Assembly (NCBI GenBank): GCA_016839805.1
Contig: JAEOTO010000032.1
Coordinates: 192,001-256,000 of the forward strand
DNA: 64,000 nucleotides
From: Candidatus Hermodarchaeota archaeon
Lineage (GTDB): Archaea > Asgardarchaeota > Hermodarchaeia > Hermodarchaeales > Hermodarchaeaceae
Direction of reading: 5' to 3'
Below, piece by piece: positions 1,948-13,344 of this stretch. The notes under the pieces are model-generated. The model did no database searches, had not been told where the DNA came from, and was given only the letters and a program-made list of their open reading frames with translations. The position numbers and the translations under genes were made by a program. Every line of letters begins with the position of its first letter. The first letter of the stretch is position 1.

Positions 1948-1983
1948 TTCAATGAAATCAATGAAATTATTATTATTAATGAT
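1948..1983. repeat. Phased 9-bp TTCAWTGAA array A
   Basis: TTCAATGAA ATCAATGAA ATTATTATT ATTAATGAT. Confidence 0.6.
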
Positions 1984-1997
1984 ACAATAGGAGAGGG

Positions 1998-3905
1998 TTA
2001 TTGGTTATAAAATGATTTCAATAATTTAAAGAGATGACCATCCTCGTCTTTTGAACGCTTTAAATTTTGGAGAATCCAACTAGGTAATAAACTATGACAA
2101 TAAGGCGTTGAATATCTATCATCTAAAAAGACAATAGCACCGAAATCTTCCAGCCTTCGAACCGAACGACCAGCAGCCTGCGAAGCAGCCCGCATAGCAG
2201 GCAACTGGTACCCATATAACCGTCCCTTCTTGGGAAATTGACGTTCGAAATAATCAACCCGAGTAATCTCACGTGGGCTAGGTCTGGCGTAAGGTACTCC
2301 AACAACGACAACCGTCTCCATCTCCCATCCCGGATAATCCTCACCCTCACTGTTTCGACCCCCAAGCACACCCAATAGTACAGCTCCATCACTAGCCTTT
2401 CTTTTAAATTCCTGAACTAACCGATCATTCTCACTGGATGAAAGACCAGGTTGTTCTACAAAGAGATCGCGATTAACGCCCGAATCCAATCCAGCAATAA
2501 GCAAGGATTGTAGAACTGCGTATGAGGGCACAAAAATCCCAACGTTATGAGGTGTTGCATGACATACTTCAATAAGCCTTTGAGTTATTTTCTCATACAT
2601 TGATGGAGTCCTATACTTCATTGCAGTTGTTACTCCCAAGCTAATTACAGGAAAGATTTGAACGTCATTAAAGGGTGAAGGCAGAGTAAGCATCCGTGTC
2701 TTTTCAGGTAACCCGACTAAGTCGATATGAGCACCAATTGGTTGTAATGTTCCAGATAAATGAACAGAGGCATGACATGAATTTAATATCGAAGCCGTTA
2801 CCGATCTAGGATCCAATGCAATTAACTCAAATCGATTTGCTGAACGAGTAGAGCTATTCTTTATCAAAAAAAATGCTGCATCTGATCTGCTTGAGAAATA
2901 ACACCACCTAACGAAAAACTTACCCAAGGAATGAATATAGCTAATAGGGGGCCTACCTTCAACTAGAAATTTATTCACTAGCTTTTCTCCGGTTTTCAAC
3001 AGCTTCGATGAAAAGGATTCTATATTCGCAATATTCATTGAACGTTGAATTTGTAAATTAAATTTCTCAGGATCTAGTTTAATTTCCCCTTTACCATTTT
3101 CTTCATCAAACAATTTTTCTAGGACTACACCAAAATTGCTTACGGTGGATAAGCGATAGCGTTTTGCTTCATTTACTGCCTGGCGAATAGAATTAATCGA
3201 TAGCTTTGCTGAAGCGATTTCTACTGCAATACGAGGTAAATTATGAGCTTCGTCGATGAGAAGTATTGTGTTTGAGAAAGGTCGTGCAAACGCCTCAAAA
3301 AATGAATTATTTATCTGTGGGTCGAAAACCTGATAATAACTCGTAGCAACAATTGTTACAAATGGTAATAATCGTTTAGACAGTTCATATGGACAAATTT
3401 GTTCATTATGGCATTTTTTACGTAGTTCCAACCCGGTTAACGGAGAAGTACAAAAACTGTTGAAGAAATGACGATTGCGTTTAATCTTTTTCGAGAGGTT
3501 ATTATACAGAGCACACCTTCCTGAGCGCTTTAATTGGCTGCATATGAACATAGCAAGCTGAGCATTAAATGCATATTTCTGTACCAGGGGATTCAAACAC
3601 GATGATGTTCTACCACGTAACACTACACCACTAAATCCATTCGACTTCGATAAGGGTAGTAACTCTTGCATTACCCGATCCAGTTGTTTGTGAGTCCTAG
3701 CAACATATATTATTCCAAAATTCCTTTTTTCTAACAGTGGTAGAACGCCTGATAACGCCGCTATTGTTTTTCCAAATCCGTTTGCCGCTTCAACACATAG
3801 ATGGTTCCCAGCTGCAACATCTTCTCGAATTGCTTCTATGAGGGTAAGTTGACCGGGTCGAGGAGACGTATAAGGGAAATATGGATTAGTATGATAGGAA
3901 GACAT
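1998..3905 (-). CDS. xpd: XPD/Rad3-family Fe-S DNA helicase
   Basis: Q motif RPGQ, NGFGKT, Fe-S cysteines, DEAH, SEGxD, QAAGRSVR. Confidence 0.9.
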   Translation of the reverse strand: MSSYHTNPYFPYTSPRPGQLTLIEAIREDVAAGNHLCVEAANGFGKTIAALSGVLPLLEKRNFGIIYVARTHKQLDRVMQELLPLSKSNGFSGVVLRGRTSSCLNPLVQKYAFNAQLAMFICSQLKRSGRCALYNNLSKKIKRNRHFFNSFCTSPLTGLELRKKCHNEQICPYELSKRLLPFVTIVATSYYQVFDPQINNSFFEAFARPFSNTILLIDEAHNLPRIAVEIASAKLSINSIRQAVNEAKRYRLSTVSNFGVVLEKLFDEENGKGEIKLDPEKFNLQIQRSMNIANIESFSSKLLKTGEKLVNKFLVEGRPPISYIHSLGKFFVRWCYFSSRSDAAFFLIKNSSTRSANRFELIALDPRSVTASILNSCHASVHLSGTLQPIGAHIDLVGLPEKTRMLTLPSPFNDVQIFPVISLGVTTAMKYRTPSMYEKITQRLIEVCHATPHNVGIFVPSYAVLQSLLIAGLDSGVNRDLFVEQPGLSSSENDRLVQEFKRKASDGAVLLGVLGGRNSEGEDYPGWEMETVVVVGVPYARPSPREITRVDYFERQFPKKGRLYGYQLPAMRAASQAAGRSVRRLEDFGAIVFLDDRYSTPYCHSLLPSWILQNLKRSKDEDGHLFKLLKSFYNQ

Positions 3906-3976
3906 TGGTTAATTCTCATCATTTGATATACCCAAAGGATAAAAACCTCATACAACACCCAATGAACGCAAAGCAC

Positions 3977-4012
3977 TTCATTGAGTTCAATATATTTAAT
4001 GAAATTAATGAG
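3977..4012. repeat. Phased 9-bp TTCAWTGAA array B
   Basis: TTCATTGAG TTCAATATA TTTAATGAA ATTAATGAG. Confidence 0.6.
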
Positions 4013-4104
4013 ATATAGATTTGGACCCTGCAAATTATTTACCGACGGATTTTTTAGTATAATGAATGAACCGTATACAAAACTGTATCCGTGGAGATAA
4101 TGAG

Positions 4105-4617
4105 TTGACTGAAAAAAACGAAACAACAGAAACGCGTTCTTGGACCCGCAGAATGCTAGGAGACCCGATTACTAAGCTTCTTGCAGACCACAGTAACCTT
4201 ACTCCAGTACAACTTGAAACCCTTGTTATCGACTATCTAATGGACGGGTTTAGTGGAAAACAGCTTGATTATGAAACAAAAGCCACTTTACGAGAAGTCA
4301 AGCCTGCTTATCAAAGACAGAAAGGCGTTAGTAGAGGTGCATTCAATCGGTCTCTTGCCCAAGCTCGAAAGAACGTGACAAAATCGATCTTTACATTAGT
4401 ACTTCTAGGCTATTTAGGACTCTTCGACACTCCATCACTCAAACGTTATCAAGACCTTTCTGATAATATTCGAAGCTTTGCGCGGGAATATGACAAAGTT
4501 GCGACAACGAAAGAAAAACCAACTGACACTCATATTAATACTCTCAAACAGGCACAAGAAAGAATTCTTAAACTCATTGAGACCCTAGCTCAACCTGTCG
4601 CCCTAAAGCCTGAATAA
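4105..4617 (+). CDS. Conserved archaeal hypothetical protein with HTH-like segment
   Basis: SNLTPVQLETL and GVSRGAFNRSLAQARKN (recognition-helix-like); TTG start after GGAGA, with an alternative ATG at 4066. Confidence 0.7.
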   Translation: MTEKNETTETRSWTRRMLGDPITKLLADHSNLTPVQLETLVIDYLMDGFSGKQLDYETKATLREVKPAYQRQKGVSRGAFNRSLAQARKNVTKSIFTLVLLGYLGLFDTPSLKRYQDLSDNIRSFAREYDKVATTKEKPTDTHINTLKQAQERILKLIETLAQPVALKPE

Positions 4618-4622
4618 GGAAA

Positions 4623-4640
4623 CTCAATGAATTCAATGAT
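4623..4640. repeat. Phased 9-bp TTCAWTGAA array C
   Basis: CTCAATGAA TTCAATGAT in a convergent intergenic gap. Confidence 0.55.
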
Positions 4641-4665
4641 TTTTATAAAATGAATCTAGTGATCT

Positions 4666-5244
4666 TTACTTAGTCATAGTGTAAACAAGGTTTTCCCCAC
4701 TGGGAGTACATTCAATACGTTCGGGAGTTTTCATTAAATACCCCATTTTTGTTAGATAATCTAACGCATCGTTGATAAAACCGGCGTCAAACCCATGATT
4801 AAAAAGAGAGTCTTCTTGAGAAACTCCACCTAATCGTTCTAATAGAACTAACACAGATAGGTAGCCAAATTGATTGATTAGTTGACTTGCAGCTATAGCT
4901 TCGTTGTCCTGAGATCCTGGCCAGAAAGAGATCGGTATCCAACCAATGAAATGATAGAATAACACTTCACCAAAAGCCCTTAACAATTTAAGGATAGGTT
5001 CTTCCGTTCCAGGTTGCACAGCTAATACACTTTTACCTAATTTCGCATGCGGGACCTGATCTAACACCCCCTCATAATAATAAGTACGAGTAACAACTTG
5101 ACCGGATTTCAACTGCTGTTTGATTTGCTGTCTATAACCATATAATTCCCGAAAAAACCGAGTCTTCCGAGACTGATTAGCACCCTTAGGCTGTTTGAAA
5201 TCAAAGGAGATTACACACAATCTTCTCTTAGGTATAGTTTGCAT
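4666..5244 (-). CDS. Hypothetical protein, Cas2/VapD-like ferredoxin fold plus C-terminal wHTH
   Basis: VISFDF...RFFRELYGY...LGKSVLAV pattern; C-terminal DALDYLTKMGYL...TPSG; ATG at 5244 after GAGG. Confidence 0.55.
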   Translation of the reverse strand: MQTIPKRRLCVISFDFKQPKGANQSRKTRFFRELYGYRQQIKQQLKSGQVVTRTYYYEGVLDQVPHAKLGKSVLAVQPGTEEPILKLLRAFGEVLFYHFIGWIPISFWPGSQDNEAIAASQLINQFGYLSVLVLLERLGGVSQEDSLFNHGFDAGFINDALDYLTKMGYLMKTPERIECTPSGENLVYTMTK

Positions 5245-5318
5245 AGCTAATCCCTCAAGTATCACAAGCTAATATCAACACTTAACAGTACTTACCCTAA
5301 AAAATCAAGTCATGGAAA

Positions 5319-5364
5319 ATTAGTGAACTCATTATATTTCAATAATTTCATTAATTTTAATGAA
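5319..5364. repeat. Phased 9-bp TTCAWTGAA array D
   Basis: ATTAGTGAA CTCATTATA t TTCAATAAT TTCATTAAT TTTAATGAA. Confidence 0.55.
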
Positions 5365-5406
5365 ATTACCATTTTTAAGGAAACATATACGTTAGACGAA
5401 CACAAT

Positions 5407-5787
5407 TCAAGATTTGTCCTTAAGCTTTTCATAGATTTCAGGAAATGCTGATCTTATTTTCTCCTCAACCGCCTTTGCGATGAATCGTGATTTCCCACCA
5501 AACCCACTATAAGGACCTTCACCTTTTTTCGTAGCTTCAAGAGCAATAAAATCCAAAGCCACCTTTATCCAACCTGGTACACTTGCACTAATTGTTTCCC
5601 GGCGATTATATTCTTCTTTGAGCCCAAGTCTCTTTAGACCCGATTCTCCGACACGAGATGGGAGATCATCTAGTTTAATAGGACCAGTATCCAACTCCGC
5701 AAAACGTCTTTTTGATTTGGGTTCTTTGCCCTTGTCTTTTTCTTTCTCTTTTTTCATTCGTTCTCTAACTAAATCCGTAGCTGACAT
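5407..5787 (-). CDS. Ribbon-helix-helix DNA-binding protein with long charged N-terminal tail
   Basis: Strand ETISASVP, helix GWIKVALDFIA, G-K-S turn, helix RFIAKAVEEKI; Lys/Glu-rich N-terminus. Confidence 0.65.
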   Translation of the reverse strand: MSATDLVRERMKKEKEKDKGKEPKSKRRFAELDTGPIKLDDLPSRVGESGLKRLGLKEEYNRRETISASVPGWIKVALDFIALEATKKGEGPYSGFGGKSRFIAKAVEEKIRSAFPEIYEKLKDKS

Positions 5788-5800
5788 TCTTTATCTTACC

Positions 5801-7120
5801 TCACACAAATGTGGACCCTTTAGTCCAAAGCTCAGTGGCCTGTATTCGACCTGCCTCAGGACTATAGATTAGGCCTTGTTTTTCGAATAAATCGAAATCT
5901 TCCAACACGCTCTCCCATGAACGATTTTTACTTTCCAGCCATGTTTCAATTTCATCAAGTGACCGCGCTGTTGATAGAAACGCTAACAAATCGGTTTGAA
6001 ACTTATTGAATTCAGCTCGTGCTCGTTTAACTTCCTTTTGTACAAAATGTTGTACGTATTTAGCATCTATTTCATAGGCGGATAATACCTGATCCAAGCT
6101 ATAACCATCTTTAACCAGTACTTCCGCACCACGAATAGCGTCTTGAAGAGTCCTTAGTAATAATTCAAGCATTATACCGGGATTCCCACCAGAGTAATCG
6201 AAAATTCCTTCTAGTGCTCCAGCTGTAAATGGATGGAGAATTTCCTTTACAATTTCGGAATTCAAATTGATCCTCTTAGCCGTGTCATGTGGGAATCGAT
6301 CAAAGGAATCTTTCAGATAAGCAAGTCTCCATGCCATGACCTTGATTGCACTTGTTCTATTCATCCTACGCATATCATAAATTTCAACAAACCTTCTTCG
6401 GATAGCAGATTTTGATCCATGGCCAAGACTTTCACCAACCGAAGATAAGATTTCAAGCGTTTTCACCGCACTTTCACCTACACGAGTAATGACAGCTAAA
6501 GCAAGAACTAGATATCGCCGCCCATCTCGTGTCTTATCGTTGACCATTCGCAACAGGATATCAACAATTCTTACACGATTATCAGGCCTTTGCCTTTCTA
6601 ACTGCCTAAATTCATCAATTAGTAGGACATATGCAGTTCCGTTTTCTTCTGCGTCTGTTCTTAAAGCTAACAATAAGCGGGACAACCGTTTCGCTACTGA
6701 ACCACTACGAACTACTCTTACTCCCACGCGGTCAATCAAAAAATCACGAACCGTTTGCTCACCAATATTTGCATGAACAAGATCGTCAATAAGAGCATCA
6801 GCAGAACTTATTCCCTCGAGGCGAACAGCCCTAATGTTTGGTAAGCGATTCAATGATTGCTGAATCATTTCAAGAAAAGTAGTTTTCCCGGCACCCAAGG
6901 GACCTGATACGACTACACTCGCTGTTTGGTTACGAAGATAGTTAATCGCGCGTTTAATTGCCAAAGCCTCTTCTTCTGGTACAACATACAGGTCAGAAGA
7001 ATCAATACCGAACAACTCGATCCTTTCGTTCTTAAATCCCCATAAAGAAAGCATTTTTTGATCGAATTTTTGTGTCTGTTCTACTAGCCGATCCAGTTCA
7101 CTCAGACCTAACACACCCAA
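5801..7120 (-). CDS. AAA+ ATPase (ExeA/initiator-like clade) with C-terminal wHTH
   Basis: Walker A GPLGAGKTT, Walker B LLIDE, Arg-finger region IRRRF, lid PFTAGALEGIFDYSGGNP; TTG start. Confidence 0.8.
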   Translation of the reverse strand: MGVLGLSELDRLVEQTQKFDQKMLSLWGFKNERIELFGIDSSDLYVVPEEEALAIKRAINYLRNQTASVVVSGPLGAGKTTFLEMIQQSLNRLPNIRAVRLEGISSADALIDDLVHANIGEQTVRDFLIDRVGVRVVRSGSVAKRLSRLLLALRTDAEENGTAYVLLIDEFRQLERQRPDNRVRIVDILLRMVNDKTRDGRRYLVLALAVITRVGESAVKTLEILSSVGESLGHGSKSAIRRRFVEIYDMRRMNRTSAIKVMAWRLAYLKDSFDRFPHDTAKRINLNSEIVKEILHPFTAGALEGIFDYSGGNPGIMLELLLRTLQDAIRGAEVLVKDGYSLDQVLSAYEIDAKYVQHFVQKEVKRARAEFNKFQTDLLAFLSTARSLDEIETWLESKNRSWESVLEDFDLFEKQGLIYSPEAGRIQATELWTKGSTFV

Positions 7121-7156
7121 TTACATAGAAGAAAAGATGTGAGTACATACTATAAA

Positions 7157-7210
7157 TTTATTGATAGCATTGGAAATCAATAAGTAATTAAATTCAATGA
7201 ATTCATTGAA
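7157..7210. repeat. Phased 9-bp array E, ending in a perfect 18-bp palindrome upstream of the AAA+/RHH operon
   Basis: TTCAATGAATTCATTGAA at 7193-7210, preceded by degenerate units TTTATTGAT AGCATTGGA ATCAATAAG. Confidence 0.65.
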
Positions 7211-7233
7211 AATTATAATAAACCACTTATTCG

Positions 7234-7824
7234 CTACCTTGTAAAGGCGATGATATCAATTTTTGTGATTATTCCGGCAGGTCTGTCTTCATCCATTACT
7301 AACAATGCCTCAACGCCTGAGGCTATTTTCGAAAAAGCAGTTTCGGCACTTTCATTGATATCAATTTTGGGAAAAGGGTCATCCATTATTTCATGAACTG
7401 ACAATGCAAAAACCTTCTGTGACTCCATTGTTGTTAGTCTGCGAAGAATGGTACCTTCGCTAATACTTCCAACAGTTATATTGCCTTTCATTACGGGAAG
7501 CTGGGAAATCCCTAATCGCCTCATAATAATAACCGCGCGCCGAACTTTTTCGTTTGGGCCTATGAAGACCAAAGGATGAAGTTTTGAAGTTTGCCCCTTC
7601 CACCTTAAAAGATCCCGAATGCTAGAGTGGGATTTTTTTTGGCTCTCTATTTCGACAAGAATGCGTTTCAATGTAGATACGCTCGGATTCACCTGCCCCT
7701 TTTCAATACGTGCTACTAAGGATTGGCTTATTCCAACACGTGCAGCAAGCTCCGCTTGTGTTAGACCCACCTTCTTTCGAAGTTCTTGTAATTCTTTAGG
7801 TGAGGGAACTCGATATTCAGCCAT
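7234..7824 (-). CDS. XRE-HTH plus CBS-pair transcriptional regulator
   Basis: GLTQAELAARVGISQSLVARIEKG, ISQLPV, GIITKIDI; ATG at 7824 (the upstream extension overlaps hypF). Confidence 0.9.
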   Translation of the reverse strand: MAEYRVPSPKELQELRKKVGLTQAELAARVGISQSLVARIEKGQVNPSVSTLKRILVEIESQKKSHSSIRDLLRWKGQTSKLHPLVFIGPNEKVRRAVIIMRRLGISQLPVMKGNITVGSISEGTILRRLTTMESQKVFALSVHEIMDDPFPKIDINESAETAFSKIASGVEALLVMDEDRPAGIITKIDIIAFTR

Positions 7825-7915
7825 CTTAAAGCACGCACCACTAACATATACTACTGATAACAACTCCAAAAGAATTAATACCCTGCTTTTGCGGGTGAAT
7901 GGGGAGATGACACCG

Positions 7916-10240
7916 ATGACTAAAACCCAGCAAGCAGAAATTCGAGTTGTTGGTGTCGTACAAGGTATTGGCTTCCGACCATTCATCTACTCGCAGGCTA
8001 TAAAACATCAGCTGCTAGGATATGTTTTGAATACAGGTAATTCCGCTGTTAAAATTATTGTAGAAGGAGAAAAAAACAATATCATTGATTTCATTGATTC
8101 CATTGAACGAGATAAGCCTTTCCTCGCAGTAATTGATAGTATACAAACCATTTGGCGATCCTCAACTAATGGGTTTACCGATTTTCAAATTCACATCTCA
8201 AAGAATGAAGAAAAAGCCGGCGGATCAATAATCCCAGCAGATATTGCAGTCTGCGAAGATTGCATCAAAGATATGTCTAACCCTCACTCAAGACACTATC
8301 AATACCCCATGACTTGTTGTGCGATTTGTGGTCCACGTTATACCACCATCACAGACACGCCTTACGACCGCGAACGAACCACAATGGTTGACTTCCCGCT
8401 TTGTGAAGACTGTTCTGCCGAATTCAATAATCCCCTTAACCGACGATACAACGCACAAACAATTTGTTGCCCAAAATGCGGCCCAGAATTTCGACTAATC
8501 AATTCAGAGGGTTTGGTTGTTGACGCTACTGATGTATTTCAGGAAACCGTCAAGCTGTTAAACAAGGGTAAAATCGTCGCAATAAAGGGATTAGGCGGCA
8601 TTCACCTTGCAGTAAGAGCCGAACTTGAAGAAGAAGTACAACGTTTACGCAAGTTAAGAAACAAACCCCATAAACCATTAGCGATTATGTCACCTAACCT
8701 TGATGCAATTAAGCAATATGCTAGAGTCAACGACACGGCAAAGCAATTATTATTATCGTGGCGACGGCCTATTGTAGTTTTAGAAAAAATTAAAAAATTC
8801 CAGTTAGCCCCTTCCTTAGCTCCTGGACTTGACACGATTGGGGTAATGCTTCCCTACTCAGGAATCTACCTACGTTTATTCGATGGCCTCCAAGATGTCG
8901 CACTAGTGATGACTAGTGCTAATCCAGTAGGTTTACCAACCATCATTCACGCCAATACCTTCCAAGAACGCTTCATGAAAATGGCTGATTTCTTTCTCAC
9001 TCATAACCGTACAATTTACCAACGATGTGATGACTCAGTAGTTATCCCCACAAATGATCAAACCCTTATCATCCGCCGATCAAGAGGTTATACCCCTGAA
9101 CCCATTAATACAGCGAATATGGGACCTCCCATTCTAGCATTAGGAGCATTAGAAAAAAACACTGGCGCCATTTACCACAAAAAACGCATTTTCCTCACAC
9201 AGCACATAGGTGATGTTGACACCATAGAAACGTTACAATATCTCCAAGAAAGTCTATCACAGCTCCAAAAGCTACTACGTATCAGCAGCTTTGATGCAAT
9301 TGCCTGTGATCTTCACCCTGATTTCCTTACCACCCAATATGCCGAAAAGTTAGCCAAAGAACAAAAAATACCCCTAGTCCAGGTTCAACACCATCACTCC
9401 CACCTTGCTGCATTACTAGCTGACCATCAATTACCAATGGATGAAGAAATAATTGCCATCTGCTGTGATGGCGCAGGATACGGACCCGATAATACTATCT
9501 GGGGTGGAGAAATACTAGCGGGGAATGCACGTGAATACCAACGCGTAGGATATCTCGAACCGCACCCAATGCCCGGAGGAGATCTTGCGGCACAATACCC
9601 GTTCAGAATGCTCATGGGAATTCTATCTAAGAAATATTCGCAAACCAAATTAGAGCGCGTGTTTCAAAAAGAAGCAAAAAAAGCCTTACCTCAAGGCCAA
9701 ATGGAGTTACAAAACGTCATCACTCAAACATACCAAAAAATCAACACCCCCTTAACATCGAGCACCGGCAGAATTCTTGATGCTTTAGCAGCTCTCCTTC
9801 AAGTTTCTTACAAAAGGACATACGAAGGCGAACCAGCAATCCGTTTCGAAGCCTATGCAAACTCAGGTAAAAATAACCCCAAAGTTCATTTGGAAATCCC
9901 TGTAACCCGACAGGAATCCTCGTACCTTCTTGATACAGGAACCCTGGTCGACCAAGTTTTTCAACAACGATCAGACATACAGGGACCTGACCTAGCGTTG
10001 GCCGCACATCTAACTCTTGGTCAAGCCCTAGCAAATATCGCTGTACAATCAGCTAATGCGCGCGGATTAAATCGAATCGGTTTTTCAGGTGGCGTAGCAT
10101 ACAATAAGATCTTAACTAAGACCATTCGAGATGCAGTCGAATTAGAAGGGCTGACTTTTTTACTCCATCGAAATGTACCCCCAGGTGACGCAGGAACATC
10201 GGTAGGACAATCCCTTGTGGCACGCTCTCAAATTATTTGA
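7916..10240 (+). CDS. hypF: Hydrogenase maturation carbamoyltransferase HypF
   Basis: GVVQGIGFRPF, two CxxC zinc fingers, KGLGG, DLHP, QHHHSH, PPGD; start at 7907 or 7916. Confidence 0.96.
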   Translation: MTKTQQAEIRVVGVVQGIGFRPFIYSQAIKHQLLGYVLNTGNSAVKIIVEGEKNNIIDFIDSIERDKPFLAVIDSIQTIWRSSTNGFTDFQIHISKNEEKAGGSIIPADIAVCEDCIKDMSNPHSRHYQYPMTCCAICGPRYTTITDTPYDRERTTMVDFPLCEDCSAEFNNPLNRRYNAQTICCPKCGPEFRLINSEGLVVDATDVFQETVKLLNKGKIVAIKGLGGIHLAVRAELEEEVQRLRKLRNKPHKPLAIMSPNLDAIKQYARVNDTAKQLLLSWRRPIVVLEKIKKFQLAPSLAPGLDTIGVMLPYSGIYLRLFDGLQDVALVMTSANPVGLPTIIHANTFQERFMKMADFFLTHNRTIYQRCDDSVVIPTNDQTLIIRRSRGYTPEPINTANMGPPILALGALEKNTGAIYHKKRIFLTQHIGDVDTIETLQYLQESLSQLQKLLRISSFDAIACDLHPDFLTTQYAEKLAKEQKIPLVQVQHHHSHLAALLADHQLPMDEEIIAICCDGAGYGPDNTIWGGEILAGNAREYQRVGYLEPHPMPGGDLAAQYPFRMLMGILSKKYSQTKLERVFQKEAKKALPQGQMELQNVITQTYQKINTPLTSSTGRILDALAALLQVSYKRTYEGEPAIRFEAYANSGKNNPKVHLEIPVTRQESSYLLDTGTLVDQVFQQRSDIQGPDLALAAHLTLGQALANIAVQSANARGLNRIGFSGGVAYNKILTKTIRDAVELEGLTFLLHRNVPPGDAGTSVGQSLVARSQII

Positions 10241-10283
10241 ACCCGTTGTTATTGAATCAACGTATTTGTTGAACAAAGACTAA

Positions 10284-10310
10284 TTCATTTATTTCAATGA
10301 ATTCATTAAG
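10284..10310. repeat. Phased 9-bp array F, abutting ORB1
   Basis: TTCATTTAT TTCAATGAA TTCATTAAG directly followed by TTCCAGTGGAA. Confidence 0.6.
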
Positions 10311-10323
10311 TTCCAGTGGAAAT
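10310..10323 (+). promoter_or_regulatory. ORB1 (core only, no G-string)
   Basis: GTTCCAGTGGAAAT. Confidence 0.75.
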
Positions 10324-10378
10324 CATCCACAACTAATATAAATACCGGTTTATTATCTAGACGCAGAGTTGTGGTTAA

Positions 10379-10672
10379 ATGGCAGCTACTCGAACAACAC
10401 AGCAAACCCGACATGGTGCTCAAAAAGGTAAAAACCGTCAAAGCACATCAACTGTACAGGCCGCAGCACCAACAAACCCCAAGGTAAATATCATCGATTT
10501 ACTTCGAGATAAAGGTGCTTTAACTAGGGGTGATATCACAACAGAAACGGGGATCCCACGTACAACTGTATATGATACCTTGATGAATCTCCTCATTTCT
10601 GGGGTTATTGAAAAGTATGTTGAAAAAAATGGTCGTCGTGGTCGGCCATCTGTTTATTATCAACTTGTATAA
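10379..10672 (+). CDS. Small TrmB-like wHTH protein
   Basis: TGIPRTTVYDTLMNL...GRRGRPSVYY. Confidence 0.85.
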   Translation: MAATRTTQQTRHGAQKGKNRQSTSTVQAAAPTNPKVNIIDLLRDKGALTRGDITTETGIPRTTVYDTLMNLLISGVIEKYVEKNGRRGRPSVYYQLV

Positions 10673-10687
10673 TCCCTAGCAACTAAG

Positions 10688-10708
10688 CCCCTTTGTTTCC
10701 ACTGGAAC
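10688..10708 (-). promoter_or_regulatory. ORB2 with G-string
   Basis: Reverse complement GTTCCAGTGGAAACAAAGGGG. Confidence 0.9.
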
Positions 10709-10890
10709 CTCATTTATTAGGTTTTTCTGTGATAATCTAGACACATTAGAAAATGCGCAAAACCATTCTATGAAACATTAAGAAAAGGCTTCTAGAAACG
10801 GGAAACTATTAATACATCCTAAACTAAAAACAAACGGGTATTATTCTTCGAATAACATATTTCCATGCACAAACTCTTTATTTTCTTCGA

Positions 10891-10911
10891 GTTCCAGTGG
10901 AAACGAAGGGG
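10891..10911 (+). promoter_or_regulatory. ORB3 with G-string
   Basis: GTTCCAGTGGAAACGAAGGGG. Confidence 0.9.
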
Positions 10912-11079
10912 AGTAATATTATTATTTCATCATCTTGTTCTTAGTAGATCGTAGAACGTCTTCATTGATGTAATATATGAAAGTTTATAACTATAGTTCA
11001 TAACTTTTTATAATAAAACAATACACACAATCAAAAATCCCTAAGAATTGATATCATAGAGTCTGAAGATTTTCGGTGG

Positions 11080-11535
11080 TTATACTTTTGTAGCCAGAAT
11101 TGTGGCAATTTCTTCTTCTAATACCTCGATATTAACCCGGTATTCACGTTGTGCAGGTGATCCACGCCGGGTAAGGTTGCCTTCGTCATGCAGTCTTCGG
11201 AGGTATTGAGATGCAGTAGCTAATCGGAGGGGTGTATGGAAGGTCCGATTATAGAGTTCTTGGATGTCACTAGAGGTAAACCAGCCGTGCCGGCAGTGAC
11301 GGAGTACAATATAGCGGACTTTACGGAACAGGCTCCAAGATTCGATATCCGCTAGAGTGGTTAATTCCTTTGCGGGTGTTGTTGGTGTTTCTTCAGTGCC
11401 AGATTGATTGAGTGCTTTGGATATTGATTGTGTAATGGATTCAGGCAAACCATCATCGAAGGTAATGGTCAGGTTGCAGGTTTTTCCCTCGATTGTGAGG
11501 CCTTCGATGGTAATCTTTTGCTTCTTTTTCTTCAT
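11080..11535 (-). CDS. wHTH protein
   Basis: WFTSSDIQELY...LATASQYLRRLHDEGNLTRRG...REY; SD AGGTGA. Confidence 0.8.
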   Translation of the reverse strand: MKKKKQKITIEGLTIEGKTCNLTITFDDGLPESITQSISKALNQSGTEETPTTPAKELTTLADIESWSLFRKVRYIVLRHCRHGWFTSSDIQELYNRTFHTPLRLATASQYLRRLHDEGNLTRRGSPAQREYRVNIEVLEEEIATILATKV

Positions 11536-11840
11536 TGTTCCGTCACCTGGTATCTTCTACCCTGCTCTCCGCGTCCCATTATATTCTGGCTTGTTCACAA
11601 TAATAAAAGTGTGACGGTGTGAAGTACTAAGTTAGGGTTTATACACGAAATGTGAGTTGATGTCTTTCTTGTAATTATGGGGGTTTCAAGCTTTATTCAG
11701 AATTCTTTGGTTTTTGGTGGTAAATACGGGTTCTCTGGGTTTATTTTTGGATTTCAGGTACTTTCTCCATTTCTTCTCATTGTTCACAAGTTATCGTTTG
11801 TTTATTAGTTGTTTGTATTAATCTAAGGTCTTAGAGGGTA

Positions 11841-11861
11841 GTTCCAGTGGAAACAAAGGGG
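11841..11861 (+). promoter_or_regulatory. ORB4 with G-string
   Basis: GTTCCAGTGGAAACAAAGGGG. Confidence 0.9.
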
Positions 11862-12108: not shown

Positions 12109-13344
12109 ATGGATGACCCACGCCCACTTGATCGCATCTTCGAACGTTTTAGTACCGGGCCCTCCCTCATTCGTGATAGGAAAGTTCTCTGGCATTCATA
12201 TGTTCCGGATGAATTACCTCATCGTGAAGAACAAATCACCCAGATTGGAAGCATTTTGGCAACTGGGTTGAAAGGAAGTCGCCCGTCTAATGTTTTTGTG
12301 TATGGGAAACCTGGAACGGGGAAAACGGCAGTAACTCGGTATGTCCTTCGAGAGTTGACAACTAAATTTGGAGAGCTTCAGTTACCTTTCAAATCGGTGT
12401 ATTTGAATTGTCGTAACGTTGATACTGATTATCGGGTTCTGGCCCGAATTTGTGCAGAGTTGGGTCAAAAGGTTCCTTTTACTGGGTTGCCAACTGACGA
12501 AGTTCATTCGCGTCTTATTGAGTTGTTGGAAAGCCAGGATTTACTCACTATTATTGTTCTTGATGAAGTTGACCGTTTGGTTTTGAAGAGTGGAGATGAC
12601 ACCCTGTATAAATTAACGCGAATTAATTATGAGCTATCAAATTCACGGGTTAGTTTAATTGGGATCTCTAACGATCTTCGATTTCCTGAATACTTGGACC
12701 CGCGGGTGTTGAGTAGTTTAAGTGAGGAAAAGGTCATTTTTCATCCGTATACGGCATTACAGCTGCAGGATATCTTACGACGCCGTAGTTCTCATGGCCT
12801 AAAAGATGGAATTCTTGAAGAACCTGGTGTAATTAATTTGTGTGCGGCGCTGGCTGCACGAGAAGAGGGTGATGCAAGACGCGCTTTAGATCTATTTCGA
12901 GTTTCGGTAGAGGTCGCTGAACGCGAAGGAAGTAAAGATGTTTCAGTTGACCACGTTGAAAAGGCACGTTTAAGCATTGAGCGAGATACCGTGCTCGAAG
13001 TGCTCCGTACACTTCCTTTACAACAGAAATTGGTTCTTTATGCTGTTTACATACTGGGTCGTTACAAACATCCACATCCTGTAACGGGGGAAGTTCAAGA
13101 TGTGTATGGCGATTTATGCAATGAATTAGGGATTGACTCTCTAACGCAACGTCGTGTTAGTGATCTTATCAATGATTTAGATGCCATTGGGCTAGTAAAT
13201 GCTAAGGTAGTCAGTAAGGGGAGGTATGGCCGGACAAAGATAATTCGGTTGAGCGTTTCAAACAAAATGGTAGCTGAAGTTTTAGAACGTGATAGCCGAA
13301 TTAAAACGCTCTCAAGTTATATACCGAAAAATCTTGGAAAATAA
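12109..13344 (+). CDS. cdc6: Orc1/Cdc6 replication initiator
   Basis: LPHRE, GKPGTGKT, LDEVD, GDARRALD, SKGRYGRT. Confidence 0.97.
   Translation: MDDPRPLDRIFERFSTGPSLIRDRKVLWHSYVPDELPHREEQITQIGSILATGLKGSRPSNVFVYGKPGTGKTAVTRYVLRELTTKFGELQLPFKSVYLNCRNVDTDYRVLARICAELGQKVPFTGLPTDEVHSRLIELLESQDLLTIIVLDEVDRLVLKSGDDTLYKLTRINYELSNSRVSLIGISNDLRFPEYLDPRVLSSLSEEKVIFHPYTALQLQDILRRRSSHGLKDGILEEPGVINLCAALAAREEGDARRALDLFRVSVEVAEREGSKDVSVDHVEKARLSIERDTVLEVLRTLPLQQKLVLYAVYILGRYKHPHPVTGEVQDVYGDLCNELGIDSLTQRRVSDLINDLDAIGLVNAKVVSKGRYGRTKIIRLSVSNKMVAEVLERDSRIKTLSSYIPKNLGK

Follow-up and report, generated by a model that had tools for sequence, protein, structure and literature searches.

Several described DNA partition systems, among them ParF-ParG of TP228, delta-omega of pSM19035 and SegAB, are encoded by an operon in which the gene for a nucleoside triphosphatase (NTPase) is followed by that for a small dimeric-type DNA binder, consisting of a flexible charged N-terminal tail coupled to a ribbon-helix-helix (RHH)-like C-terminal domain, with short tandem repeats located beside or around the operon near a replication origin. 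The tail of ParG carries an invariant Arg, and the NTPase of these ParA-type systems has the ParA/MinD fold with a deviant Walker A motif (KGGxxK[ST]). The window analysed in this work (the whole stretch of 64,000 nt, positions 192,001–256,000 of contig JAEOTO010000032.1 of a Candidatus Hermodarchaeota archaeon, to which all coordinates without a locus prefix refer) contains a gene pair beside the chromosomal replication origin (oriC) that resembles these systems in operon order, in the tailed architecture of a small protein that is likely of the RHH type, in an invariant Arg within that tail (R10), and in the tandem-repeat arrays next to the operon (seven, 1948–10310). It differs in that the NTPase is an AAA+ ATPase with a classical GxxGxGKT motif and in that the repeats form a dispersed 8-kb field of 2–3-unit arrays rather than one centromere. 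Judged from sequence comparison, the pair belongs to an Asgard module that is widespread, single-copy and located beside oriC, and represents its winged-helix branch, here termed type 1.

The type 1 ATPase gene (5801–7120, minus strand) begins with a TTG start codon and encodes a 439-aa AAA+ protein with a C-terminal winged helix, as read from its open reading frame (ORF) and translation. It is followed, after a gap of 13 nt, by the gene of the small partner (5407–5787, minus strand), a 126-aa protein composed of an N-terminal peptide, a Lys/Glu-rich linker and an RHH-like C-terminal domain. A Shine-Dalgarno-like GTGAGGT precedes the ATG of the small gene, and the two-gene operon with a 13-nt gap proposed in an earlier note on this DNA was borne out by the ORFs, their translations and the sequence. 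The same note placed the pair about 3 kb from the first of the origin recognition boxes (ORBs), in agreement with the 3.2 kb found between ORB1 (GTTCCAGTGGAAA, 10310–10322) and the ATPase start. Further boxes of oriC were located at ~10689–10708 (minus strand), 10891–10911 and 11841–11861. The genuine Orc1/Cdc6 initiator of the window (12109–13344, plus strand) is encoded 5 kb away from the ATPase gene and matches Pfam Cdc6_C (PF09079, 1.7e-28) and Cdc6_lid (PF22703, 1.8e-21). The pair is flanked on one side by radB, XPD, orf183 and orf199, and on the other by an HTH_3-CBS gene, hypF, the four ORB boxes (10310–11861), wH151, orc1/cdc6, DUF2240 and the gene for the PolD small subunit, surroundings that are, by their gene content, those of a replication origin.

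The ATPase possesses a classical Walker A motif (GPLGAGKTT), a Walker B motif (LLIDEF) and an RRRF box. In an alignment of 20 homologs the segments SGPLGAGKTTF (Walker A), IDEFRQLER (Walker B), ITRVGES, GHGxKSAIRRRFVE and SGGNPG were invariant, as was the C-terminal segment FDLFEK.GLI.SP..G.IQ.T.LW. The replacement of the usual sensor-II Arg by Gly, reported earlier for the single sequence, therefore holds throughout the alignment, given the invariant SGGNPG; in hhalign, the last Gly of this segment (G315) falls on the column of the sensor-II Arg, which is invariant in the related Asgard ATPases. Pfam returned a generic P-loop/AAA signal only (AAA, 31.8 bits), with AAA_22 (PF13401) passing its gathering threshold marginally (27.6 bits against a cut-off of 27) and ATPase_2 falling just under its own (33.0 against 33.2). 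The ParA-type families CbiA, AAA_31 and ParA of Pfam were not matched, nor were Cdc6_C or Cdc6_lid at E ≤ 0.1. Because neither Cdc6 domain is matched, the ATPase is, at the level of sequence, not an Orc1/Cdc6 family member.

By predicted fold, the ATPase is an initiator-clade AAA+ protein with a lid and a winged helix. An AlphaFold2 (AF2) model of the protein, with a predicted local distance difference test (pLDDT) score of 75, was searched with Foldseek and best matched Aeropyrum ORC2, Sulfolobus Orc1-1/1-3 and Pyrobaculum Cdc6, and also eukaryotic Orc4, Orc1 and Cdc6 across ~430 columns that include the C-terminal winged helix (in order 1w5t at E 2e-9, then 2qby, 1fnn, Orc4, Orc1 and Cdc6), with TnsC, RuvB and SSO1545 next; identity to the Orc/Cdc6 structures is merely 12–15%. 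As modelled, the protein shares with Orc1/Cdc6 and ORC an AAA+ base with a helical insertion after β2, a lid and a C-terminal winged helix, as well as a position beside oriC. It differs from them in lacking the Cdc6_C and Cdc6_lid matches, in having Gly for the sensor-II Arg and in its obligatory small partner gene. The description of the protein as an ExeA/initiator-like AAA+ ATPase with a winged helix is thus supported, by the marginal AAA_22 match and by the Orc1/Cdc6 fold match. Its likeness to ExeA/GspA-like AAA_22 proteins extends to an N-terminal WGF...ELFG that resembles the ExeA-like FG..PF; however, GxPR is replaced by GNPG, and the neighbouring genes are origin and repair genes with no secretion, PEP-CTERM or transposition link. 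The MuB/TnsC/IstB group is represented among the fold matches by TnsC, but the type 1 ATPase differs from this group and from ExeA in being chromosomal, single copy and origin-linked. A complex predicted for the ATPase with the small protein scored 0.01, which counts neither way.

The small gene is always located 10–33 nt downstream of the ATPase gene, both in the genus of the window and in Ranarchaeia, the second group that carries type 1. The N-terminal peptide of the protein is invariant at M1, S2, D5, L6, E9, R10 and M11 (MS..DL..ERM), the middle is a variable Lys/Glu linker, and the conserved core reads RVG.SGLKRL ... R.TISASVP.WIK.ALD ... GFGGKSRFIA.A...K....FP. Comparison by hhalign with canonical RHH/NikR N-domains, found in the same genus with PF01402, gave a collinear alignment of strand, helix A, G-x-S turn and helix B with a 9-residue loop insertion (pairwise P = 0.002, probability 14%). 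The small protein is therefore likely an RHH protein, as read from its sequence: of the charged tail and C-terminal RHH described in the earlier note, the layout of tail and domain is clear, and the RHH fold is weakly suggested by the motif pattern and the hhalign result. Sequence searches of Pfam, NCBIfam, PADLOC and the PDB with the small protein gave nothing meaningful; no similarity to ParG or omega was detectable, and no solved structure was matched. Foldseek of the monomer model against the PDB found no match at E ≤ 0.001, a result that is uninformative and is expected for an obligate dimer fold. Weak leads to CopG, Antitox_RHH and ParB_C clusters at 0.90 in a protein-atlas feature search were not used as evidence.

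The repeats consist of phased 9-mers of the form TTCAWTGAA, arranged in seven arrays. Array A (1948–1965) contains two units 7 bp upstream of the radB start, a position kept in the genus, and Array B (3977–4003) contains three units in the divergent gap between XPD and orf183. Array C (4623–4640) has two units in the gap where the 3' ends of orf183 and orf199 converge, which is no promoter position, and is kept in seven of nine genus loci. Array D (5338–5364) is formed by three degenerate units in the gap between the small gene and orf199, with orthologs in the related loci L020 and L023. Upstream of the ATPase start, at a distance of 73 bp, lies Array E (7193–7210), a perfect 18-bp palindrome of two TTCAWTGAA units, from which degenerate units reach out to ~7157 and for which orthologous sites are present in genus loci. 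Three units of Array F (8081–8107) lie within the 5' coding part of hypF, where up to 3 units are kept in eight of nine genus loci, and the three units of Array G (10284–10310) abut ORB1. The arrays noted earlier upstream and downstream of the operon are real, yet short at 2–3 units, with cores at 7193–7210 and 5338–5364; the remainder of the upstream array (7157–7192) is degenerate. Orthologs of the arrays recur at the convergent ends of orf183 and orf199, within hypF and against ORB1, and the arrays track the origin side and not particular genes.

The 2.31-Mb genome contains five phased two-unit arrays with at most 1 mismatch per unit, four of which are located at 1948–8107 of the window, and seven three-unit runs with at most 2 mismatches, four of them at 3977–10310. 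The 18-mer, when 2 mismatches were allowed, was present at 10 genome sites, six of which are in the locus, compared with 0 for a reversed-pattern control. Across 15 genus genomes, 36 sites of the 18-mer (≤1 mismatch) were found, with 33 no more than 4.7 kb from the ATPase gene and one more on a contig bearing the small gene and orf183; the reversed-pattern control again gave 0. The clustering is beyond chance, and the 9-mers are essentially private to the ~8 kb left of oriC. GATATC was also enriched in the window (11 against 5.4 expected) and was judged not meaningful, being mostly coding and forming no arrays.

Conservation was assessed in a sample of 201 Asgard genomes, most of which are metagenome-assembled genomes (MAGs), and in which related genomes are not independent. 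The ATPase was present in all 14 species of the genus at 82–96% identity, and the type 1 locus is vertical, single-copy and syntenic in all of them; at E ≤ 1e-5 the type 1 ATPase was not found in the 186 other sampled Asgard genomes. In nine syntenic relatives the ATPase is 82–84% identical, against 85–92% for Orc1, 79–84% for a PhoU-like protein and 51–78% for the other listed neighbours, and the GC content of the locus resembles that of its flanks. Homologs of the ATPase carry labels of Promethearchaeota, Hermodarchaeota or Thorarchaeota MAGs. A profile run exhaustively against 1.84 billion representatives returned only three strong matches, which makes type 1 a very small family.

The second home of type 1 is Ranarchaeia, a deep-branching Asgard class (10.1101/2024.07.04.601786), where the ATPase is 52–57% identical to that of the window. 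On three Ranarchaeia contigs, orf183, HTH-CBS, ATPase, small, wH152 and Orc1 genes are arranged inside 2–3 kb together with the same phased 9-mer, and the neighbours are otherwise different (ribosomal-protein and Arf-GTPase genes). A third, more distant member (P0104) is likewise followed by an ORF that starts MSSIADLI. The three-part logic of AAA+ motor, tailed binder and repeats proposed in the earlier note thus stands so far as its parts are co-conserved, origin-linked in two distant lineages and accompanied by private repeats; the pairs are not confined to mobile elements, and both origin linkage and arrays are present. Because Ranarchaeia Orc1 is 44–51% identical to the Orc1 of the window, below the 53–60% of other Asgard families, the module common to the genus and Ranarchaeia may reflect either ancient retention or transfer. 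As a separate observation, the palindrome AGGATCC occurs 17 times in a Ranarchaeia origin locus (L025) against 1.8 expected, and AAGATCT is likewise a lineage-specific palindrome in a locus of family f26 (L065, 18 against 3.7 expected).

In the four MAGs of the sister genus (g2) neither the ATPase nor the small protein was matched, from which absence is not implied. No Orc1 match was obtained in three of these four MAGs, and in the MAG G033 the assembly breaks exactly between orf183 (end of contig C10, L032:12730–12822) and wH151 (start of contig C43, L031:799–1242). The g2 bins seem to lack their origin regions systematically, and because contigs break at the locus and Orc1 is mostly missing, g2 was dropped as a negative control. 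One MAG of the window genus (G096, 72% complete, 3% contamination) additionally has, on a small contig, a short ATPase of the f6 type (G096:C249:5–919), which is probably contamination.

Type 1 is related to shorter ATPases encoded beside the origins of at least seven other Asgard families. Comparison of the profiles by hhalign gave a probability of 98.2% and an E-value of 5.4e-14 over 279 columns (residues 7–328). These relatives are 304–377 aa in length; the winged helix (~110 C-terminal residues) and the loss of the sensor-II Arg belong to type 1 alone. The shorter ATPases are single copy in families f2 (4/4), f6 (40/43), f7 (5/5), f18 (5/6), f20 (3/3), f26 (1/1) and f27 (2/3), and were not found in f12, f4 or f9. 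The earlier note presented the module as new in isolation; type 1 is, rather, one branch of a wider Asgard family.

The genes occupy a common slot, near orf183 and usually between wH151/Orc1 and orf183/HTH-CBS, that is kept across at least nine Asgard families. In all loci examined (f2, f6, f7, f18 and f20) the ATPase gene adjoins a small RHH-like gene near orf183/Orc1. The slot holds a 351–377-aa ExeA-like ATPase and a 153–155-aa protein with an RHH-like C-terminus in f7 and f18, a 304–306-aa ATPase (AAA_22, 1e-16) with a 109–117-aa tailed RHH-like protein in f2 and f20, a 324-aa ATPase followed directly by a 101-aa RHH-like protein in f6, and an ATPase of the same kind in f26. In f12, the slot is instead occupied by ParA (AAA_31, 4.7e-55) and ParB (ParB_N, HTH_ParB), encoded directly upstream of orf183 in all three genomes (L041:9652–11251; L060:6840–8424; L061:8903–10472). 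ParB_N was detected in 48 of the 201 sampled genomes, including all those of f12, and was not found in f1, f2, f7 or f18 of this sample.

Each module type has a different repeat motif, although the neighbours orf183, wH151 and HTH-CBS remain the same. Types 2 and 3 share with type 1 a homologous ATPase core, a downstream tailed RHH-like partner, the same slot and private phased palindromes, but these are GATATC at ~13 bp or GTAWTAC at 9 bp, in contrast to TTCAWTGAA at 9 bp. In a complete 3.6-Mb genome, nine of 10 GATATC pairs with a ~13-bp phase are within 11.4 kb of the module, and GTAWTAC pairs with a 9-bp phase were found at the module locus only (4/4 and 1/1 genome sites). Each of the three lineages tested has its own private motif. 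Tandem Repeats Finder (TRF), run on many loci, was too noisy for generalising and served solely to point out the 13-bp arrays of type 2 loci. No similarity between the type 1 and type 3 small proteins was found by hhalign (probability 2.8%), and the β-strand segment RETISAS(V/I)P of the small protein does not vary among loci with a TTCAWTGAA-type motif and is different in the remaining module types. A family f5 genome (G004) has in the slot a 107-aa homolog of the type 1 small protein (L038:6995–7318, minus strand) whose C-terminal domain is 53% identical and which has no N-terminal peptide; degenerate phased WTTAWTGAA-like units lie upstream of this lone gene, and the ATPase was not found in the genome. 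The joint absence of peptide and ATPase fits the tail being the ATPase-facing part. A 109-aa DUF-like ORF is present in G004 at the expected place of the ATPase.

Five lines, namely the conserved single-copy ATPase, the constant tailed partner, the private repeat field, the motif that varies with module type and the ParAB pair in the same slot, point to a nucleoprotein system of a partition-like or origin-organising kind whose DNA specificity would be set by the small protein. We read the module as a device for partition or for organising the origin, on the lines of ParA-ParB-parS, ParF-ParG and SegAB, a reading in which our confidence is evenly balanced. In such a device, small-protein dimers would bind the phased 9-bp TTCAWTGAA units cooperatively across the ~8 kb left of oriC and form a centromere-like nucleoprotein domain, and the invariant N-terminal peptide (with Arg10) would engage the ATPase, which would assemble on DNA with ATP in the manner of Orc, MuB, TnsC and IstB. 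MuB, TnsC and IstB form assemblies on DNA in the presence of ATP, from which a partner releases them, and for MuB, an AAA+ protein, partner-stimulated ATP turnover on DNA leads to ParA-like patterning; a ParA-like working principle is therefore available to initiator-clade AAA+ proteins. Partner-controlled ATP turnover would then position, pair or separate origin regions. Given the lost sensor-II Arg, hydrolysis by the type 1 ATPase may lean more on a trans-acting residue, and through its winged helix the ATPase may touch DNA directly. A broader proposal, that Asgard origins are segregated or organised by a fourth class of partition motor, comprising an ORC/Cdc6-fold AAA+ ATPase, a tailed RHH protein and a palindrome field and functionally interchangeable with ParA-ParB, which takes its place in one family, is offered tentatively, and we consider it rather less probable than its negation.

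Several observations weigh against the partition or origin-organising reading. The small protein did not match RHH, ParG or omega families of Pfam at E ≤ 10, and its monomer AF2 model is poor (pLDDT 52.6). Other candidate binders of the 9-mer are encoded nearby, namely HTH-CBS, orf183, wH151, Orc1 and the winged helix of the ATPase itself. Several arrays occupy promoter positions (radB, XPD/orf183 and the operon itself), as a plain regulator needs, and the finding of ParAB in this slot is an association by location and no proof of equal function. The genome of the window also has six weak AAA_31 matches elsewhere (ParA/MinD-family ATPases), and the module is not universal, as many Asgard families (f4, f9 and others) gave no match. 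Lastly, we know of no partition system with an AAA+ motor.

Two other functions could be served by a pair at this position, and both are considered unlikely. The module may control origin firing, with the ATPase and its partner beside the ORBs regulating initiation, for instance through sequestration or remodelling of oriC or by promoting or preventing the loading of Orc1 and MCM, rather than moving DNA. The full-length fold match to Orc1/Cdc6, Orc4 and Cdc6, the linkage to orc1 kept in two lineages, and Array G, which abuts ORB1 with a 9-mer that resembles a shortened ORB core, are consistent with this, but the ATPase gives neither a Cdc6_C nor a Cdc6_lid signal and no longer has the sensor-II Arg, its relatives in other families are without a winged helix, the arrays span 8–15 kb on one side of the origin and not its inside, and the slot in f12 is occupied by a partition pair and no initiation factor. 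An about equally improbable role is local transcription control, in which an RHH repressor that controls its own synthesis, with the ATPase as co-factor, would govern the origin-side genes radB, XPD, hypF and the operon, much as do aCcr1 and CdrS, two cell-cycle regulators of the RHH type, or the Orc1-2 damage regulator of Sulfolobales. The arrays located 7 bp upstream of radB, between the divergent XPD and orf183 genes, and ahead of the operon at 73 bp would suit such a regulator, as would the degenerate phased units that G004 retains upstream of its lone small gene, and archaea are known to have RHH and Orc1-2 regulators (PMC7617429; PMC12490963). Against it, arrays are also found at convergent 3' ends, inside the hypF coding sequence and against ORB1, the flanking genes are wholly different between the genus and Ranarchaeia while the arrays remain on the origin side, and a repressor leaves the strongly conserved single-copy AAA+ partner unexplained.

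A mobile-element remnant or a defence system located near the origin by chance is very improbable. Chromosomes can acquire origins, together with initiator genes, from extrachromosomal elements, and the patchy distribution of type 1 over one genus and Ranarchaeia could mean transfer; the ATPase also has a weak PADLOC match to mad8 (E 2.6e-5), restricted to the P-loop region. However, the locus is single copy and fully syntenic in 14 of 14 species with a GC content like that of its flanks, a Pfam scan of the neighbouring genes found no integrase or mobile-element family, the slot is kept in at least nine families, and no defence match rose above noise. Conserved synteny, the single copy and the absence of matches to such families led to the rejection of this explanation.

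Among the neighbouring genes, orf183 (4066–4617, plus strand) encodes a helical HTH-like protein that flanks the slot and is widely conserved in origin neighbourhoods, being found in 77 of the 201 Asgard genomes; in other families it comes immediately after the ATPase-small pair, or after ParAB. On its opposite side the slot is bounded by wH151 (11080–11535, minus strand), a winged-helix-like gene between the ORBs found in 111 of the 201 genomes. The co-conserved HTH_3-CBS gene (7234–7986, minus strand, identified by Pfam and listed at 250 aa) adjoins the pair in Ranarchaeia too, and is widespread in Asgard origin neighbourhoods that lack the TTCAWTGAA 9-mer. As listed, it overlaps the hypF ORF (7619–10240, plus strand) by ~370 bp; because its relatives are 195–202 aa long, its real start is probably an internal Met near 7821, as judged by length, and the start of hypF is probably internal as well. 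The N-terminal half of orf199 (4666–5265, minus strand; ..RFFRELYGY..) resembles, by eye, 83–118-aa proteins (..KFYKELFGF..) of type 2 origin neighbourhoods (L039:8496–8747; L040:10470–10826), and orf199 may belong to the conserved genes of the neighbourhood as well. A 97-aa winged-helix-like ORF (10379–10672, plus strand) lies inside the origin, between ORB1 and the inverted ORB2. In relatives, a second Orc1/Cdc6 paralog, 31–33% identical to the Orc1 of the window, is encoded ~0.8 kb past mem144 (L017:1816–2949, L021:1767–2900, L024:1317–2450 and others), a position whose equivalent in the genome studied here is just left of the window start.

On chromosome partition in Asgard archaea, a 2024 review of the archaeal cell cycle goes no further than noting that they have homologs of ParA and ParB and may make use of them (PMC7617429), and a literature search found no paper describing this AAA+/small-protein module. 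Several families without a ParB_N match in the present sample carry the AAA+/small-protein module beside oriC instead, and the module is probably a system for partition or for organising the origin that has not been described before. Its parts are defined, two small genes and an 18-bp palindrome, which makes it directly testable, and a private repeat field that ends at the ORBs provides a practical marker of Asgard origins. If the reading is correct, the module would be the first partition or origin-organising machine built on an initiator-clade AAA+ ATPase; on the broader proposal of a fourth motor class, ATPases of the origin-recognition type would have a part in segregating chromosomes in the prokaryotes most closely related to eukaryotes.

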